From Candidatus Bathyarchaeota archaeon (GTDB lineage: Archaea > Thermoproteota > Bathyarchaeia > Bathyarchaeales > Bathycorpusculaceae): a stretch of 64,000 bases of DNA. Both the position numbers and the translations under genes were made by a program. Under the pieces are notes generated by a model that did not search any database, was not told the DNA's origin, and saw nothing but the letters and a program-made list of their open reading frames with translations. The stretch spans positions 10-64,009 of the forward strand of contig JAAYYI010000033.1 in NCBI GenBank assembly GCA_012515445.1. The letters run 5' to 3'. This document shows positions 6,879 to 25,025 of the stretch, piece by piece (positions within the stretch are counted from its first letter, which is position 1; every line of letters starts with the position of its first letter).

Positions 6879-7934
6879 ATGGTACAGAAAGCAATAGTGT
6901 ACTGTGACCGAGAATACCTAAACGCAAACGGAAAAACAGCCCACGGACTAGTCCGTTACACCACACGCTACCAAATTGCGGGTGTAGTAGACTCTACTGT
7001 GCCAGCTTCAGGCGATGCTGGAGAAATTCTGGATGGAAAAGCAAGAAGCATCCCCCTATTCCACAACTTGGAGGAGGCCTGTGAAAAAACCAAGCCGGAC
7101 ACTTTTATCATCGGCGCAGTCTCAGAGGGCGGCGTTTTGCCAGCAGGCTATGACAAAGCTGTTGATTACGCGCTGGAGCATCATCTTAACGTCGTGTCGG
7201 GGCTGCATCAATTCATCTCCGACGACCCCCGCTTCGCCTCGGCTGCCAAGAGAAACGGCTGCCAAATCACCGACGTTCGCAAACTCTTCCGCGATCACAA
7301 ACGCTTCTACACCGGTGAAATAAGCAAAGTAGGCGCAACACGAATCGCCGTGCTGGGTACAGATTCCGCAATCGGCAAACGCACCACCGCAGTGCTGCTG
7401 GTTAACGAGTTGCGCAGGCGCGGCAGAAAAGCAGACATGATATTCACTGGTCAAACCGGCTGGATGCAGGGCTGGCCGCATGGCGCCATAATTGATGCTA
7501 TGATAAATGACTTTGTTTCGGGTGGTATAGAGGGTGCAATCATCGATTCTTGGCGTGACGAAGCTCCAGAGTTTGTTTTAATCGAAGGACAAGGCAGCCT
7601 GTTGCACCCGTTTTTCCCCGGCGGTTTTGAGATTATGGCAGCTGGGCAAATCCACGGCTTCACTATGCAGGACGCGCCTGGTAGACCGTGCCTCGATGGG
7701 TTCCCCGGCTACCCAATGCCTGACACACGCCGCGTAGTAAAACTGGCTAATCTTCTTTGCGGCAAGCCGCTAGTGGGCATCAGCATCAATCACGAGAACA
7801 TGACGCCACAGCAGGTTCAAACTGCCAAAGCCGACATGCACAAGAAATTCCATGTGCCCATTGAGGATCCAGTGTTTGATGGCGTAGTTAAGCTGACTGA
7901 TGCAATTGAGAAGCTACGTGACGGTGAAGCTTAA
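6879..7934 (+). CDS. DUF1611-family protein (DgcN-like P-loop/Rossmann protein)
   Basis: 351-aa ORF. The N-terminus has GKTAHGLVRY. The P-loop-like GTDSAIGKRTTAVLL and EGQGSLLHP are typical of DUF1611. It starts 8 nt after the upstream stop. Confidence 0.75.
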   Translation: MVQKAIVYCDREYLNANGKTAHGLVRYTTRYQIAGVVDSTVPASGDAGEILDGKARSIPLFHNLEEACEKTKPDTFIIGAVSEGGVLPAGYDKAVDYALEHHLNVVSGLHQFISDDPRFASAAKRNGCQITDVRKLFRDHKRFYTGEISKVGATRIAVLGTDSAIGKRTTAVLLVNELRRRGRKADMIFTGQTGWMQGWPHGAIIDAMINDFVSGGIEGAIIDSWRDEAPEFVLIEGQGSLLHPFFPGGFEIMAAGQIHGFTMQDAPGRPCLDGFPGYPMPDTRRVVKLANLLCGKPLVGISINHENMTPQQVQTAKADMHKKFHVPIEDPVFDGVVKLTDAIEKLRDGEA

Positions 7935-9371
7935 ACGAACCTTCTGTGCCTACAAAGCATAGAACTCTCCGAGCCCCAAATCCAAGGCAACGCCGTCCAC
8001 ACCGAAGTAACCCTCACCGACCTTTTGGCTAAAAAGAGCAGCTTTAGCCTGCAAGCCAAATACCCCCATGCACTTTCAGAGGCCGACTTACCGCTTCTGC
8101 GACTTGCCAGCGCCATGCCCATCCTTAACTACGGCTTATTCACCGACCAAATCCGATTGAACTACCCCATCAGCCACGCTGACCGTGCACTCCTAAATGA
8201 CCTTCTTGGGCTATTTAGCCGGGACATATTCATCAACAAGCTGGTGCGTCGGAAAAACCCCTATGTGCTCCCTGAGTACCTGCCAACCGAATCTGAGGTT
8301 ACGGAGGAAAACGCCAAGCCCCGAGCTAAAATCATCTCCAAATCGGTGTTTGCTGATGTTCCAATAATCAGCGGGTTAAATGCGAATTCCTGTGGGGTGC
8401 TCTCTAGCGGCGGCAAAGAAAGCCTCCTCACTTACGGCATGCTAAAAGAAGCAGGCGCCAACGTCTACCCCCTCTACGTCAACGAGAGCGGCGGACACTG
8501 GCGAACCGCATTGGCCGCCTACCGATACCATACTAAAACTGAGCCTAACACGGTACGGGTCTGGCTGAACGTAGATCGCTTCTACAACTTCATGCTTGAT
8601 CACCTCCAAATCATACGCCCCAACCACCGCAAAGTCTGGCTCGACACCTACCCCATCCGTCTCTGTATCTTCCCCGTCTACGTATTCTACCTCCTCCCCA
8701 TCTTCGCCGCCCAAAAAATCAGCAACCTTCTAATCGGCAGCGAATTCGACGACCCCCGGCTTGCACCCATCTACCGCGGCATTAAACACTACTTCGGCGT
8801 CTATGACCAAACCCAAGACTACGATTTACGCATGGAGCAATGGTATCAAAAACGCATGCCCACAATGAGGCAATGGAGCGCAGTGCGACCCATCTCAGGC
8901 TTGATTGTGGAACGTATCCTGACCCGCCGCTACCCCAAGCTAGCCAGTGTCCAGCGAAGCTGCCACAGCTGCCGTTTAGAGGGCGGCGAGGTAGTACCAT
9001 GCGGCGACTGCAGCAAATGCCTCGGAATCCAACTGTTCCTGCAGGCTAACGGCGCTGACCCCACAGCCTTGAACTACAGCAAACGGGATGTGGAGCTTTT
9101 CGCTCAGCGTTTCAATCAGGGCAGCTTGAGACTTGACGAGGATGAACGGGAGCATGCAGCCTACTTAGCCAGCCGACATGGCGTTACAGTCACCGGCAAA
9201 GAGAACCCGCATGTCGAGTCAATCCACCTCTACAAAGCCACCGCCGATCTGCAGCTTGTTCCAAAGCAGTTCCGCGCAAAACTTATGGGCATAATCGAGC
9301 AATACACCAACGGCTACACCAAACTCGAAGACGAAAAATGGGTCATCGCCGAGGCGTCTAAAGAGTTTTAA
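7935..9371 (+). CDS. PP-loop (N-type ATP pyrophosphatase) superfamily protein with C-terminal Cys cluster (start ACG 7935 proposed; TTG 8025 alternative)
   Basis: VLSSGGKESLLTYG is a SGGxDS-type PP-loop. The C-terminus has CHSCRLEGGEVVPCGDCSKC. The frame is open from the codon directly after the DUF1611 stop. Confidence 0.6.
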   Translation, partial: TNLLCLQSIELSEPQIQGNAVHTEVTLTDLLAKKSSFSLQAKYPHALSEADLPLLRLASAMPILNYGLFTDQIRLNYPISHADRALLNDLLGLFSRDIFINKLVRRKNPYVLPEYLPTESEVTEENAKPRAKIISKSVFADVPIISGLNANSCGVLSSGGKESLLTYGMLKEAGANVYPLYVNESGGHWRTALAAYRYHTKTEPNTVRVWLNVDRFYNFMLDHLQIIRPNHRKVWLDTYPIRLCIFPVYVFYLLPIFAAQKISNLLIGSEFDDPRLAPIYRGIKHYFGVYDQTQDYDLRMEQWYQKRMPTMRQWSAVRPISGLIVERILTRRYPKLASVQRSCHSCRLEGGEVVPCGDCSKCLGIQLFLQANGADPTALNYSKRDVELFAQRFNQGSLRLDEDEREHAAYLASRHGVTVTGKENPHVESIHLYKATADLQLVPKQFRAKLMGIIEQYTNGYTKLEDEKWVIAEASKEF

Positions 9372-19476: not shown

Positions 19477-21825
19477 TTGACTGATAAAAACGTCCATGTA
19501 AAAATAGACGAAATGAAGACCAACGCCGGTCTTGTCAAGAACCTCGAGTTATCTATTGGCAAGGTTATTAATGATAACTATACTGAAGAGCCAATGGGTC
19601 CAACTCCGATGCCCTCCATAACCACCCTGCGAGATTGGGACATGAAGCTTTTAACCAAATACAAGCCCTTCTACATGCCCGACTGCGACTCATGTTGCCT
19701 TTGCACTTTTGGCAAATGTGACTTGACCGCTGGCAAACGCGGCGCATGCGGTTTAGACATAGCAGCCCAATCATCGCGTATCGTTATGATTGCAGCCTCA
19801 ATCGGTTCTGCATGCCATACAGCTCACTCACGCCACTTAGTTAACCACTTAATAGAAAAGTATGGCCGCAGGTACCCCATTGATGTCGGAGGATTAAACG
19901 TTAAAGTTGAAGCACCAGTCAGCCGCCTTGTAACTGGTATAAAACCTGCAACACTCGGCGACTTGGATGATATTCTAACATACACAGAAGAAGAAATTAC
20001 TCAAATTCTAGCAACCGCACACACAGGTCAAGAAGCAAACCCATTAGACTTTGAATCAAAAGCCTTCCACATCGGCATGATTGACCATGTAGGTATGGAA
20101 GTAGGCGACATTGCCCAGATATCCGTTTTCGGCTATCCAAAAGCTGACCCAGAAGCTCCACTAATCAAATTAGGCATCGCCAGCGTTGACAGAACCAAAC
20201 CGGTTGTCATGTGCATCGGCCACAACGTTGTACCATCAGTCGGAATTATCGACTATGCAAAAGAAAACAAAATTGACGAAAGAATCGAAGTAGTCGGCTT
20301 ATGCTGCACAGCCCACGACATGTCAAGATACTACACCCGTGCAAGAATCGTTGGCCCAATCAGCTGGGAAATCAGATTCATACGCGCAGGCCTTGCAGAT
20401 GTCGTAGTACTCGATGAGCAATGCATCAGAACCGATGTAGCTGAAGAAGCAGCGAAAGTTAACACACCAGTCATCGCAGCCTCAGAGAAGAACTGCGTTG
20501 GTTTCAAGAACCGCACAAACGACTCAACCGACTCAATCGTCGAAGACCTCGTCACTGGCAAAGTTCCGGGTGTACTAGTCCTTGACCCAGAAAAAGTCGG
20601 CGAAGTAGCCGTCCGCGTTGCAATGAAGATGGCACCAATCCGCAAACGCAAGAACGTTCTCCCAACAGCAGAAGAAGTTGTTGCAATCGCAAAGACATGC
20701 ACACAATGCAAAGCTTGCCAGCGCAACTGCCCACAGGACTACTTCATCCCAGCAGCTATGAAAGCAGCAGCTGCCGGTGACTTATCAAAACTAGAAGAAA
20801 TATACGAAGTCTGCATTGGATGCTTAAGATGCGAAAGCGCATGCCCACAGAAAATCAAGATCCATAGCCTCATCGTCAAAGCAGGCGAAAAATCAATGCA
20901 ATGCGAAGATAACCTATGCCGCAGCGGCAGAGGTGCAGTTTCAGATGTCGAAATCCGCAGCGTCGGTGGTCCACTTGTTCTTGGAGAAATTCCAGGTATC
21001 GTCGCCATCGTCGGTTGTAGCAATTATCCAAAAGGCGGCAAAGACGTATATGACATAGCCAGAGAATTCGCAAGCAGACGATACATTGTTGCACTATCAG
21101 GATGCAGCGCAATGTCCGCAGGCAGCTACCGCAACAAAGATGGCCAAACCCTCTACGAAGAATTCCCAGGCGGATTCGAAGCAGGAGGAGTCCTCAACGT
21201 CGGCTCATGTGTCTCAAACAGCCACATTGCAGGTGCAGCCATCAAAGTCGCAAATATCTTCGCAAAACGCCCACTAAGAGGCAACTACGAGGAAATCGCA
21301 GACTATGTCCATAATCGTATCGGTGCAGTAGGTTTAGCTTGGGGTGCATACTCACAAAAAGCAGCATCCATCGCAGCAGGTTTCTGGCGCTTAGGTGTAC
21401 CGGTCGTCGTCGGCCCACACGGAAGCAAATACAGACGCATGCTCCTAGGCCGCAAGGAAGACCCAGAAAACTGGAACGTAATAGACGCACGCACAGGCGA
21501 AACAGTCAATGTCGGTCCATCACCAGAACACCTATTCAACGTAGCAGAAACCAAAGAAGAATGCATCGTCCAAATCGCAAAGCTCTGCATGAGACCAAAC
21601 GACACATGGAAGGGACGCTCCGGCAAACTCAGCCACTACATTGACCTACACAAACGCTACATGGGTGTCATGCCAAACGATATTCACCTATACGTCAGAA
21701 CAATGGCAGATGTACCAATCACAATGAAGGACGAAATTACACAAGTCCTGCAAGCAAACAACTGGAAAGAAAGCATAATTCCGGACCCAACATTGCTCCC
21801 AAGAATGGTCCGTAAAATGAAGTGA
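19477..21825 (+). CDS. cdhA: Acetyl-CoA decarbonylase/synthase alpha subunit (CODH catalytic subunit)
   Basis: 782-aa ORF starting at TTG, with GAGGT 8 nt upstream. It has N-terminal CDSCCLCTFGKCDL..GACG cluster motifs, a ferredoxin-like insert (CTQCKACQRNCP, CIGCLRCESACP) and a C-cluster region. Confidence 0.95.
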   Translation: MTDKNVHVKIDEMKTNAGLVKNLELSIGKVINDNYTEEPMGPTPMPSITTLRDWDMKLLTKYKPFYMPDCDSCCLCTFGKCDLTAGKRGACGLDIAAQSSRIVMIAASIGSACHTAHSRHLVNHLIEKYGRRYPIDVGGLNVKVEAPVSRLVTGIKPATLGDLDDILTYTEEEITQILATAHTGQEANPLDFESKAFHIGMIDHVGMEVGDIAQISVFGYPKADPEAPLIKLGIASVDRTKPVVMCIGHNVVPSVGIIDYAKENKIDERIEVVGLCCTAHDMSRYYTRARIVGPISWEIRFIRAGLADVVVLDEQCIRTDVAEEAAKVNTPVIAASEKNCVGFKNRTNDSTDSIVEDLVTGKVPGVLVLDPEKVGEVAVRVAMKMAPIRKRKNVLPTAEEVVAIAKTCTQCKACQRNCPQDYFIPAAMKAAAAGDLSKLEEIYEVCIGCLRCESACPQKIKIHSLIVKAGEKSMQCEDNLCRSGRGAVSDVEIRSVGGPLVLGEIPGIVAIVGCSNYPKGGKDVYDIAREFASRRYIVALSGCSAMSAGSYRNKDGQTLYEEFPGGFEAGGVLNVGSCVSNSHIAGAAIKVANIFAKRPLRGNYEEIADYVHNRIGAVGLAWGAYSQKAASIAAGFWRLGVPVVVGPHGSKYRRMLLGRKEDPENWNVIDARTGETVNVGPSPEHLFNVAETKEECIVQIAKLCMRPNDTWKGRSGKLSHYIDLHKRYMGVMPNDIHLYVRTMADVPITMKDEITQVLQANNWKESIIPDPTLLPRMVRKMK

Positions 21826-21844: not shown

Positions 21845-22387
21845 ATGTCCTGTGAACCATGGCAATGTGCAGAAATTGCAGCAACTAAAAAAGCAAACGT
21901 AATCCAAAAACCCGAGATAGCAGTCGCAATGATGAAACGGGCTCAACACCCCATCCTCATTGTCGGCAGTAATGTCACAGAAAGATGGATGGACGGTAAG
22001 CAAGCCATCGAATACATCATCGAATTCGCAAACGCATCAAAGATTCCAGTAGTAGCAACAGCCCATATGGTCGGCGAATTTGTAAAGCGCGGCTATACTC
22101 CAGCAGCATACTGGAATGCAATGGAAATCAGCCAACGCGTCTGTGACCCAACATGGATGGGACTGGACGGCAAAGGCCACCCAGACCTAGTCATCTATGT
22201 TGGTATGCCATACTACATGGAAGCACTGATCCTAAGCGGCCTCAAACACTTCGCACCAGACCTAAAAACAATGACACTTGACAACATGTACCATGTACAC
22301 GCAAGTTGGTCATTCCCTAACGCAAGCCTAGAAGAATGGGCTGCAAACCTCAAAGTTTTAACTTCAAAATATAGTGGAGGACAATAA
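21845..22387 (+). CDS. cdhB: ACDS epsilon subunit
   Basis: 180-aa ORF directly after cdhA, with GGAGGAG upstream. Size and position are canonical for the archaeal cdh operon. Confidence 0.85.
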   Translation: MSCEPWQCAEIAATKKANVIQKPEIAVAMMKRAQHPILIVGSNVTERWMDGKQAIEYIIEFANASKIPVVATAHMVGEFVKRGYTPAAYWNAMEISQRVCDPTWMGLDGKGHPDLVIYVGMPYYMEALILSGLKHFAPDLKTMTLDNMYHVHASWSFPNASLEEWAANLKVLTSKYSGGQ

Positions 22388-22388
22388 A

Positions 22389-23795
22389 ATGTCAATGTTT
22401 AAAGATATACCAGTAGAAGTCGGCGTAATCTACGAAGGAGAACGTATCCGCAGAAACGACATGCAAGTCGAACTCGGCGGACCAACAGTCAAACAAAAGT
22501 TTGAACTGGCAAAAGTAAAACCCATGAACGAAATCGACGATGGCAAAGTCACCATCATCGGTCCAGACTTAAAAGACCTTAAAGAAGGCGGCGCTTACCC
22601 ATTCGGTATCCTAATCGAAGCAGCAGGCGCAAAACTCGATGCAGGCCTCGAAGGTGTCCTAGAAAGACGCATTCACGGCTACTTAAACTACATCGAGGGC
22701 TTCATGCACCTAAACCAGCGCTATGACATCTGGATACGCATCGGCAAGAAATCCTTCCAGAAAGGCCTAAACAGCTTTGAACCAATCGGCAAAGTCGTCT
22801 ACAGACTCTTCAAGAGCGAACTACCAATCGTCGAGAAACTACAGATCACCTTCATCACAGACCCAGCAAAACTAGAAGAAATGACGCCAGCGGCAATGCA
22901 AGCATACGAAGCACGCGACTCAAAAGCCAGAGGCCTAAAAGACTCAGAAGTATCAGAATTCTACGGCTGTGCACTCTGCCAGTCATTCGCACCAAGCCAC
23001 GTCTGTGTCATTACACCACAAAGATACAGCAACTGCGGCGCCATCAGCTGGTTCGACGGTAAAGCCTCCGCAAGCATTGACCCCAAGGGCCCAGTCTTCG
23101 CAATCCCAAGAGGCGAAATGCTAAACGAAGAAAAAGGTGAATTCAGCGGCGTTAACGAAGCAGCAAAGAAACGCAGCATGGGCGAAGTCACCAAAGTCTG
23201 GCTATACACAGCCTTTGACCACCCACACACTTCATGCGGATGCTTCGAAGCAGTAACCTTCTACGTCCCAGAAGTCGACGGCTTAGCAGTCGTACAACGC
23301 AACTTCAAAGGCGCAACCGTAAACGGCTTACCCTTCAGCACAATCGCAGACTCCGCAGCAGGCGGACGCCAAATCGACGGCTTCCACGGAATGTCCATCG
23401 AATACATGCGAAGCAGCAAATTCTTCGCAGCAGACGGCGGATGGAACCGCATCGTTTGGGTACCAAAAGAAGTCAAGGAAAAAGTCAAAGACTTCATCCC
23501 GAAAGACGTTGTTGACAAGATCGCAACCGAAGAGGATGCAAAGAACGTTGACGAACTCAAAGCGTTCCTGAAGGCAAAGAACCATCCAGTCGTTGCTAAA
23601 TGGGAAACAGAAGCACCAGCAGCAGAAACCGCAGCAGTCACCGTTAACGAGGAAGCAGCAGGCACAATGATGCCAGTTGCAACAGCAGGATCACTGCCAA
23701 TAATGGCCGGCGGATTCAAGATCATCCTCAAAGACGCAAAGATCTACGCCAACAAAGTCATCATAACCACCGCAAAAGACGAGAAGAAAGCTTAA
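22389..23795 (+). CDS. cdhC: ACDS beta subunit (acetyl-CoA synthase, A-cluster)
   Basis: ATG 22389 is preceded by GGAGG at 22376-22380. Motifs FYGCALCQSFAPSHVCVITP and HTSCGCFE carry the A-cluster Cys ligands. Confidence 0.95.
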   Translation: MSMFKDIPVEVGVIYEGERIRRNDMQVELGGPTVKQKFELAKVKPMNEIDDGKVTIIGPDLKDLKEGGAYPFGILIEAAGAKLDAGLEGVLERRIHGYLNYIEGFMHLNQRYDIWIRIGKKSFQKGLNSFEPIGKVVYRLFKSELPIVEKLQITFITDPAKLEEMTPAAMQAYEARDSKARGLKDSEVSEFYGCALCQSFAPSHVCVITPQRYSNCGAISWFDGKASASIDPKGPVFAIPRGEMLNEEKGEFSGVNEAAKKRSMGEVTKVWLYTAFDHPHTSCGCFEAVTFYVPEVDGLAVVQRNFKGATVNGLPFSTIADSAAGGRQIDGFHGMSIEYMRSSKFFAADGGWNRIVWVPKEVKEKVKDFIPKDVVDKIATEEDAKNVDELKAFLKAKNHPVVAKWETEAPAAETAAVTVNEEAAGTMMPVATAGSLPIMAGGFKIILKDAKIYANKVIITTAKDEKKA

Positions 23796-23810
23796 GCCCG
23801 GTGACCTAAA

Positions 23811-25025
23811 ACGTCCAACGACAAGAAAAACAATGACGCGCTCAAGCTAAGTGACGATCTCTTAGCAGCGCTCGCAAAGTTCAAGACGATCGAGTTGGAA
23901 GACTTCCAACTTGACGCCAAAGAACTAGAAATACTCTTCGAGCCAGGACAAGCAGTAAACGTATTACCGAAACTCAAACTACCATTAGGCGTCGGCGCAG
24001 GCAAACCAACAAGCTTACTAGCACAGAACTTCCTGCCACCAGTCGAGAAATACCCAAACAAGATCGCCACAGTCAAACTAGGCGCAACACGAAGCGAAGG
24101 CGGCACACGCGGCAGAACAGTCACACTCGGCGGAGAAACCTCTCCAGCCTTCTACTCCTTTGAGAACCCAACACCACACAAACCAATCGTAACCTTAGAC
24201 GTCTTCGACATGGAAGTCCCACTGTCCAAGGCCGTCAAGATGCACGTTAAAGACGTCGTCGGCGACCCAGCAGCATGGGCGAAGCTTGCAGTCGAAAAGT
24301 TCGGCGCAGACATGGTTACAATGCACCTCATCAGCGTAGACCCACTACTCAAAGACGCATCACCGAAAGAAGCATGCAAAACAGTCGAGAAAGTCCTGCA
24401 GGCAGTCGATGTACCACTCGTAATCGGCGGATGCGGTGACCCAGTAAAAGACACAGCCCTCTTTGAAGAGGTATGCGCTCAGTTCCCAGGCGAACGCTTC
24501 CTAATCAGCTCAGTTACACGCGACATGGATGGCGAAAAATGCGCTAAATTCATCAAGAAAGCAGGCAACGCAGTACTTGCCTTCACACCAATGGACCTTA
24601 ACTTTGCACGCGAATTAAACAGGCGTCTCTTTGATCACCTATCACGCGAAGACATCGTTATGGACTTAACAACCGCAGCCCTCGGCTATGGACTTGACTA
24701 CGCATTCACCAACATGGAACGTGCACGCATCGGCGGCTTAATGGGCGACATGGAACTCGCTCAACCAATGAGCAGCGGCACAACCAACGCTTGGGCAGCC
24801 CGTGAAGCATGGCTAAAGATGTCAGCGGACTTTGAACCACGCGAACTCAGAGGTCCACTATGGGAAGTCACCACAGCGCTCACACTGCTTACTGCAGGTG
24901 TCGACGTATTCATGATGATGCACCCAGCAGCCGTTAAAACCCTCAAAGACGTCACTAACTACTTAACTGCAAACAAGAAAGCCGACCCAACCAAGTTCCT
25001 TGAGTGGGTTAAGGTGAAAGCTTAA
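23811..25025 (+). CDS. cdhD: ACDS delta subunit (corrinoid FeS protein small subunit); start proposed at ACG 23811, TTG 23895 alternative
   Basis: TIM-barrel CdhD/AcsD-like sequence (TLGGETSPAFYSFE, VTMHLIS, VPLVIGGCGD). The frame is open from 23805, with GGTGA at 23800-23804. Confidence 0.9.
   Translation, partial: TSNDKKNNDALKLSDDLLAALAKFKTIELEDFQLDAKELEILFEPGQAVNVLPKLKLPLGVGAGKPTSLLAQNFLPPVEKYPNKIATVKLGATRSEGGTRGRTVTLGGETSPAFYSFENPTPHKPIVTLDVFDMEVPLSKAVKMHVKDVVGDPAAWAKLAVEKFGADMVTMHLISVDPLLKDASPKEACKTVEKVLQAVDVPLVIGGCGDPVKDTALFEEVCAQFPGERFLISSVTRDMDGEKCAKFIKKAGNAVLAFTPMDLNFARELNRRLFDHLSREDIVMDLTTAALGYGLDYAFTNMERARIGGLMGDMELAQPMSSGTTNAWAAREAWLKMSADFEPRELRGPLWEVTTALTLLTAGVDVFMMMHPAAVKTLKDVTNYLTANKKADPTKFLEWVKVKA

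Follow-up and report, generated by a model that had tools for sequence, protein, structure and literature searches.

A conserved ACG codon behind a Shine-Dalgarno motif is the probable start codon of cdhD in a Bathyarchaeia lineage

The DNA analysed here (the window) is a 64,000-nt stretch of contig JAAYYI010000033.1, assembly GCA_012515445.1, from Candidatus Bathyarchaeota archaeon (Bathyarchaeia). It carries a cdhABCDE operon, and our analysis concerns the junction between cdhC and cdhD, the latter encoding the delta subunit of the carbon-fixing acetyl-CoA decarbonylase/synthase (ACDS) complex. At this junction a conserved coding stretch precedes the first canonical start codon of cdhD, and an ACG codon led by a Shine-Dalgarno (SD) motif is probably the codon from which the gene is translated. 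The features of the junction are the following.

22374..23795, plus strand: cdhC (beta subunit), 473 codons, TIGR00316 635 bits and NF003379 709 bits, stop codon TAA at 23793-23795
23800..23804, plus strand: SD motif GGTGA, seen in the sequence and kept across 108 cdhD loci
23805..23810, plus strand: 6-nt untranslated spacer between the SD motif and the start, from comparison with relatives
23811..23813, plus strand: ACG, putative initiation codon of cdhD, from the comparison of this slot in 108 loci
23811..23894, plus strand: 28-codon N-terminal extension missed by open reading frame (ORF) callers, from its coding signature, the family model and conserved residues
23895..23897, plus strand: TTG, first canonical in-frame start and the start in the public record, an ordinary Leu codon without an SD motif upstream
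23811..25025, plus strand: cdhD (delta subunit) as re-annotated here, 404 codons plus stop codon TAA, TIGR00381 440.7 bits and NF003375 518.7 bits

The junction (region 23640-24060) reads AAA GCT TAA gcc cGGTGA cct aaa ACG TCC AAC GAC AAG ... ATC GAG TTG GAA, and cdhC and cdhD share one reading frame in this window. The TGA of GGTGA (23802-23804) is in the cdhD frame and is the stop that closes this frame upstream, leaving it open from 23805. ACG 23811 follows GGTGA at a distance of 6 nt, inside the range of 4-9 nt that we asked of an SD motif; the pairing assumes the general archaeal 16S end ...GAUCACCUCC-3', the species' own 16S end being absent from the assembly. There is no in-frame ATG, GTG or TTG in the 28 codons from 23811 to 23894, the first being TTG 23895, which would leave a gap of 99 nt after the cdhC stop, as compared with only 15 nt for ACG 23811. 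The original prediction, made from this stretch of DNA, had placed the cdhD start at ACG 23811 behind GGTGA and not at TTG 23895. Its coordinates for the cdhC stop, GGTGA, the open frame, ACG and TTG were all correct, its translation of the 28-codon stretch matches the sequence, and the placement itself is supported below by homology, selection and the identity of the start slot.

The start slot was compared in 108 cdhD loci, drawn from 99 genomes of this genus and 9 others of its order, by locating the SD motif and then the next in-frame codon. An SD motif was present in every locus (108/108), as GGTGA or rarely as AGTGA or GGTGG, and the in-frame codon 5-7 nt past it was ACG in 52 loci, TTG in 48 and ATG in 8, with nothing else at this position. 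The spacer between the motif and this codon measured 5 or 6 nt (7 in one locus) and was hypervariable in sequence; since it differs in both length and sequence among close relatives, it is not translated. Past the slot, ACG and TTG species have identical codons, as where either triplet precedes ACT CAC CAC GAC ACA GAC AAA; ACG is therefore homologous to a start codon. ACG was invariant in all 52 ACG species, although the genome uses it least among the Thr codons (11.8% of their total) and synonymous divergence is about 0.65-0.75. In 14 of the 52, including the species studied here, no in-frame ATG, GTG or TTG lies between the upstream stop and ACG: in 12 of them, again with this species, the 6-nt spacer puts the TGA in frame, and in the other two a TAA precedes ACG. 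The first downstream canonical codon in these 14 species is variable, lying 19-55 codons further on. The mean SD match length was 6.1 nt in ACG species vs. 5.3, a difference that is confounded by phylogeny and was not used as evidence.

An open run of 30 codons has a chance probability of about 0.24 (61/64 per codon) and is not unusual by itself; the open stretch counts as more than chance because it is conserved. The encoded protein belongs to the CdhD/ACDS delta subunit family (NCBIfam TIGR00381, PRK04452; Pfam PF03599); it scored 440.7 bits against TIGR00381 (cut-off 252.9) and 518.7 bits against NF003375 (cut-off 488), positions 4-389 of the 389 in TIGR00381 were matched, and the operon neighbours cdhA, cdhB, cdhC and cdhE were present. 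Orthologues did not align only from the residue encoded at 23895, the outcome that the original prediction had named as speaking against it. Relatives and the family model both align well upstream of the TTG, tblastn matches to genus relatives starting at residue 4-5 of the open frame. In the profile alignment of CdhD N-termini that had been proposed as a check, the TIGR00381 match began with model position 4, at window 23859; counted from ACG this is residue 17, and the TTG comes 12 codons later. Among 41 aligned CdhD sequences from across the order, E28 was invariant and L17, L21, L29 and D31 were nearly so. The extension consists of a Lys/Asp-rich tail followed by a conserved motif, LS-DLL-ALAKF--IE. 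The prediction had described a Lys-rich segment followed by KLSD for methanogen proteins; this holds for the genus (consensus ..DKKKD.EGL.LS.DLL.ALAKF), the methanogens themselves having been compared through the family model only.

The substitution pattern agrees with this. For the 22 codons before the TTG slot, the 14 ACG species without a canonical alternative gave entropies of 0.43/0.28/1.21 at the three codon positions and a ratio of non-synonymous to synonymous differences (pN/pS) of 0.20, as compared with 0.25 for the next 22 codons, at a synonymous divergence of about 0.65-0.75. Both conservation and synonymous variation set in right after ACG (T/P-H/Q-H/N-D; CAC/CAT, GAC/GAT, ACT/ACC/ACG). 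These data indicate that the 28-codon stretch is part of the protein and is under in-frame purifying selection. AlphaFold2 modelling of the monomer gave residues 1-77 of CdhD at low confidence (pLDDT, the predicted local confidence score, 37-61), with one short helix at 15-21, and we therefore make no statement on the fold of the extension; solved structures cover only CdhD residues 78 onward.

A maximum-likelihood tree of the 108 cdhD genes, from which the first 30 codons were excluded, required at least 12 gains or losses of ACG, at least 7 of them forced by well-supported branches; ACG, TTG and ATG have thus been interchangeable in evolution. Within the genus, ACG was restricted to one clade of 85 members; the basal clade, of 14 members, was TTG throughout, and the order-level outgroups had ATG or TTG. 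ATG was rare and scattered on the tree, a pattern that would fit a brief passage through ATG between TTG and ACG, and from the counts given above the slot appears to favour weak starts throughout the genus.

Taken together, these results suggest that cdhD is very probably translated from ACG 23811 as an SD-led, near-cognate start: ACG is one base from AUG, and no canonical in-frame codon is available. GGTGA (23800-23804) would pair with the 3' end of 16S rRNA and set the small subunit 6 nt before ACG, which the ordinary initiator Met-tRNA (anticodon CAU) would read as a near-cognate codon, the middle base forming a C-A mismatch. The product would be a 404-residue CdhD, whose first 28 residues are absent from database entries. 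The initiator tRNA of the genome is standard, with A1:U72, the anticodon CAU and three G:C pairs (G29-31:C39-41) in the anticodon stem. No initiator-like tRNA with the anticodon CGU was present in the assembly (92% complete), where the sole CGU tRNA is an ordinary Thr elongator. We infer from these features that Met-tRNAi, the normal initiator tRNA, decodes ACG, and the identity of the N-terminal residue is likewise inferred. The initiator tRNA gene (aragorn c[23133,23236]) has an intron of about 25 nt next to the anticodon loop and is missed by a default scan without intron mode.

The distance from the cdhC stop to the start slot was 5-15 nt in 98 of 103 loci and 5-6 nt in 84. In most loci (85/103) the cdhC stop is the TGA inside the SD motif of cdhD (CGGTGA); in the subclade of the window it is TAA or TAG and is shifted 12-15 nt upstream of the start slot. 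Translational coupling by termination-reinitiation occurs in archaea and bacteria (Huber et al., PMC6728339, PMC10666635). It operates at such distances in Haloferax and Escherichia coli, typically between genes for subunits of one complex, and the 15 nt found here falls within the rule of about 20 nt from stop to start (PMC10666635). Because the cdhC stop is so near to the cdhD start, re-initiation by ribosomes that have just finished cdhC probably accounts for a large share of cdhD initiation, and for such ribosomes a weak start codon would be acceptable or even an advantage. The gene pair resembles known coupled pairs in encoding subunits of one heteromeric complex and in having the upstream stop 5-15 nt from the start, inside the SD motif in most relatives. 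It differs from them in that those pairs are ATGA or TGATG overlaps with canonical starts, whereas for cdhD the distance is positive and the start would be ACG; the 15 nt seen here is also near the limit at which coupling fades in Haloferax. Coupling to cdhC termination is probably a reasonable part of the mechanism.

In a genome-wide scan for GGTG[AG] followed by a codon at ORF heads, ACG ranked third after ATG and TTG, with 7 occurrences vs. 4 and 0 at control spacings. One case was a gene on contig C16 (C16:38487-39395), which encodes a membrane-anchored coiled-coil protein of 303 residues, winged-helix-like in its C-terminal part; the gene has ACG at the start slot behind AGGTGA, its first canonical start lying 72 codons downstream. 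In 18 genus relatives the slot of this gene holds ACG, and in one (L133) it holds ATG in an otherwise identical context; in the other subclade the aligned slot comes directly after a canonical start (TTG, ATG or GTG). From this comparison the gene shows, as a second and unrelated case, the same ACG pattern as the one described for cdhD. A tryptophanyl-tRNA-synthetase-like ORF on the minus strand of contig C28 (about 10415 from the 5' end of the reverse complement) has AGGTGA, a 7-nt gap and an ACG, with its first ATG 8 codons further on; this ACG is a possible further start. The scan also flagged 7923-7937 in the window, where GGTGA is followed after 7 nt by ACG 7935, directly past a TAA stop; the frame that opens there has 478 codons, and its first canonical start comes 30 codons later.

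Several other explanations of the cdhC-cdhD junction were weighed. TTG 23895 has in its favour that no canonical start precedes it in frame and that the public record begins there; the conservation upstream of it would then reflect a non-coding RNA or DNA element. This is very unlikely. The slot is TTG in only 12 of the 108 loci and otherwise CTG, CTT, CTC, TTA, CTA, ATA, ATT or TTC; it is thus an ordinary Leu codon, and no SD motif precedes it in the sequence. The variation upstream falls mainly on third codon positions with the low pN/pS given above, the family model and the invariant residues reach upstream of the TTG, and the RNA around the start folds no better than shuffled sequences (z score -0.56). 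Read-through of the cdhC stop, giving a CdhC-CdhD fusion, is barely conceivable even with the two genes in the same frame in the window: the ribosome would have to pass two stops here, TAA and TGA, the frames differ in 63 relatives (TGA stop, 5-nt gap), two species have an extra in-frame TAA before ACG, the codons between the stop and ACG are hypervariable, and the TTG and ATG species clearly initiate cdhD separately.

Initiation within the extension at another non-canonical codon (AAG, ATC 23889 or a Leu codon), or at several sites, is unlikely. The near-cognate codons AAG and ATC are present in the stretch, and the NCBI record of a relative (G059) starts MQLTDD at a non-canonical CTG, 14 codons past ACG. 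However, CTG is absent from the stretch in this genome, none of the candidates is conserved or has an SD motif at working distance, and the onset of conservation and synonymous variation directly past ACG, together with its homology to the TTG and ATG starts of relatives, favours ACG itself. C-to-U editing of the mRNA, as in plant organelles, would turn ACG into AUG; it would fit the strict conservation of ACG and the presence at the slot, in 8 species, of ATG, which is one transition away, and genomic data do not separate it from near-cognate reading. We nevertheless consider editing quite unlikely: to our knowledge no mRNA editing is known in archaea, and the same ACG pattern at unrelated genes would demand a broad editing system. 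A DYW-type deaminase (PF14432) was not found in the genome, a weak argument, as 14 of 14 control genomes were silent too. Initiation at ACG 23811 by near-cognate decoding therefore remains our preferred explanation.

Some points weigh against initiation at ACG. All the evidence comes from metagenome-assembled genomes of related, non-independent species. With a spacer of 5 nt, as in 38 of the 52 ACG species, a GTG inside the SD motif falls in frame and could be an alternative start. When any SD 5-mer was allowed in the genome scan, the SD-plus-ACG count was 9 vs. 5 at the control spacing, which is suggestive and not significant alone. Finally, neither archaea nor bacteria have ACG as an established start codon, and our literature search found no report of ACG starts in archaea or Bathyarchaeia. 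As a candidate, the GTG inside the SD motif is excluded in this genome by the in-frame TGA and is unlikely elsewhere given the variation of the spacer between 5 and 6 nt.

ACG is a known near-cognate start in eukaryotes and viruses, as in VP2 of adeno-associated virus (AAV) and C' of Sendai virus, where it is read by Met-tRNAi under eIF1/eIF1A/eIF2. The cdhD codon resembles these starts in being one base off AUG, in presumably being read by a normal initiator tRNA and in being a weak start that may tune output, and archaea share the aIF1/aIF1A/aIF2 core with eukaryotes (for the general principle of eukaryotic near-cognate initiation, see PMC4705826). In contrast to the eukaryotic cases, it would be placed by an SD motif in a polycistronic operon and not by scanning with a Kozak context, and it would be the sole start of an essential subunit, kept across about 50 species, and not that of an alternative isoform. 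In E. coli, infC (coding for IF3) and pcnB start at AUU, and the AUU of infC serves IF3 autoregulation. These genes share with cdhD a conserved non-canonical start behind an SD motif on a prokaryote-type mRNA that gene finders miss; the codon is AUU in the one case and ACG in the other, and nothing comparable to IF3 autoregulation is known for cdhD. NCBI table 11 includes ATT as a start and does not include ACG. Among archaea, ribosome profiling of Haloferax volcanii placed about 30% of putative alternative sites on near-cognate codons, which its authors set aside as possible false positives, none being validated (PMC7261190); both cases are archaeal, and that of cdhD rests on evolutionary conservation at the sole start of a core gene.

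A further, more tentative reading, which we hold to be possible and somewhat doubtful, is that ACG is a selected fourth start codon in this lineage and no mere defect that is put up with, read by Met-tRNAi with relaxed, eukaryote-like stringency and preferred at tightly coupled genes such as cdhD; a start too weak to be used by free ribosomes would tie synthesis of the delta subunit to the completion of cdhC translation and so fix subunit stoichiometry. This would fit because ATG is rare at the slot as compared with ACG and TTG, because the switches on the tree are repeated and because ACG starts appear at unrelated genes.

In this uncultured archaeon and about fifty related species cdhD lacks a normal start codon and very probably begins at ACG, so that gene finders remove 28 conserved residues from the protein. 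The public record of the CdhD of the window is 376 aa long, from TTG, and the records of relatives are either truncated, at 353-394 aa, or 403-418 aa long, those of 411-412 aa starting at the GTG inside the SD motif. Some public predictions begin MTSTTHH... because the GTG within GGTGA is in frame when the spacer measures 5 nt. In the NCBI record of a close relative (L033, G059 contig C1; P0009), 394 aa beginning with MQLTDD, the pipeline evidently improvised the start. Bathyarchaeia are among the most abundant archaea of sediments and soils, and Wood-Ljungdahl/ACDS genes are central to claims on their carbon metabolism. If initiation at ACG is correct, proteins are systematically cut short or made too long under standard gene callers and NCBI table 11, and AUG, GUG and UUG can no longer be given as the only archaeal start codons. 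The lineage would then offer a natural system for studying how start-codon stringency is set by the aIF1/aIF2 machinery that archaea have in common with eukaryotes, and for asking whether subunit ratios in coupled operons are enforced by weak starts.

The remaining genes of the operon are the following.

19477..21825, plus strand: cdhA (alpha subunit), TTG start, first gene of the cdhABCDE operon, TIGR00314 1145.7 bits, from the ORF list
21845..22387, plus strand: cdhB (epsilon subunit), TIGR00315 126.6 bits
25040..26464, plus strand: cdhE (gamma subunit), ATG start 14 nt past the cdhD stop, NF003195 585 bits

The ORF start of cdhC, GTG 22374, overlaps cdhB by 14 nt, and the family models align only from residue 8, just past two ATG codons (VEDNKMSM; window 22374-22395), suggesting that the true cdhC start may be one of these two ATGs. 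A prediction of the complex between the C-terminal 85 residues of CdhC and residues 1-80 of CdhD, run without controls, gave a score of 0.03 and speaks neither for nor against binding. The C-terminal tail of CdhC (GGFKIILKDAKIYANKVII, window 23700-23790) is conserved and resembles two short strands around a DAK turn, and an N-terminal segment of CdhD (IELEDFQLDAKELEILFE, window 23886-23945) likewise resembles two short strands around a DAK turn, so that two such segments are encoded on either side of the cdhC-cdhD junction.

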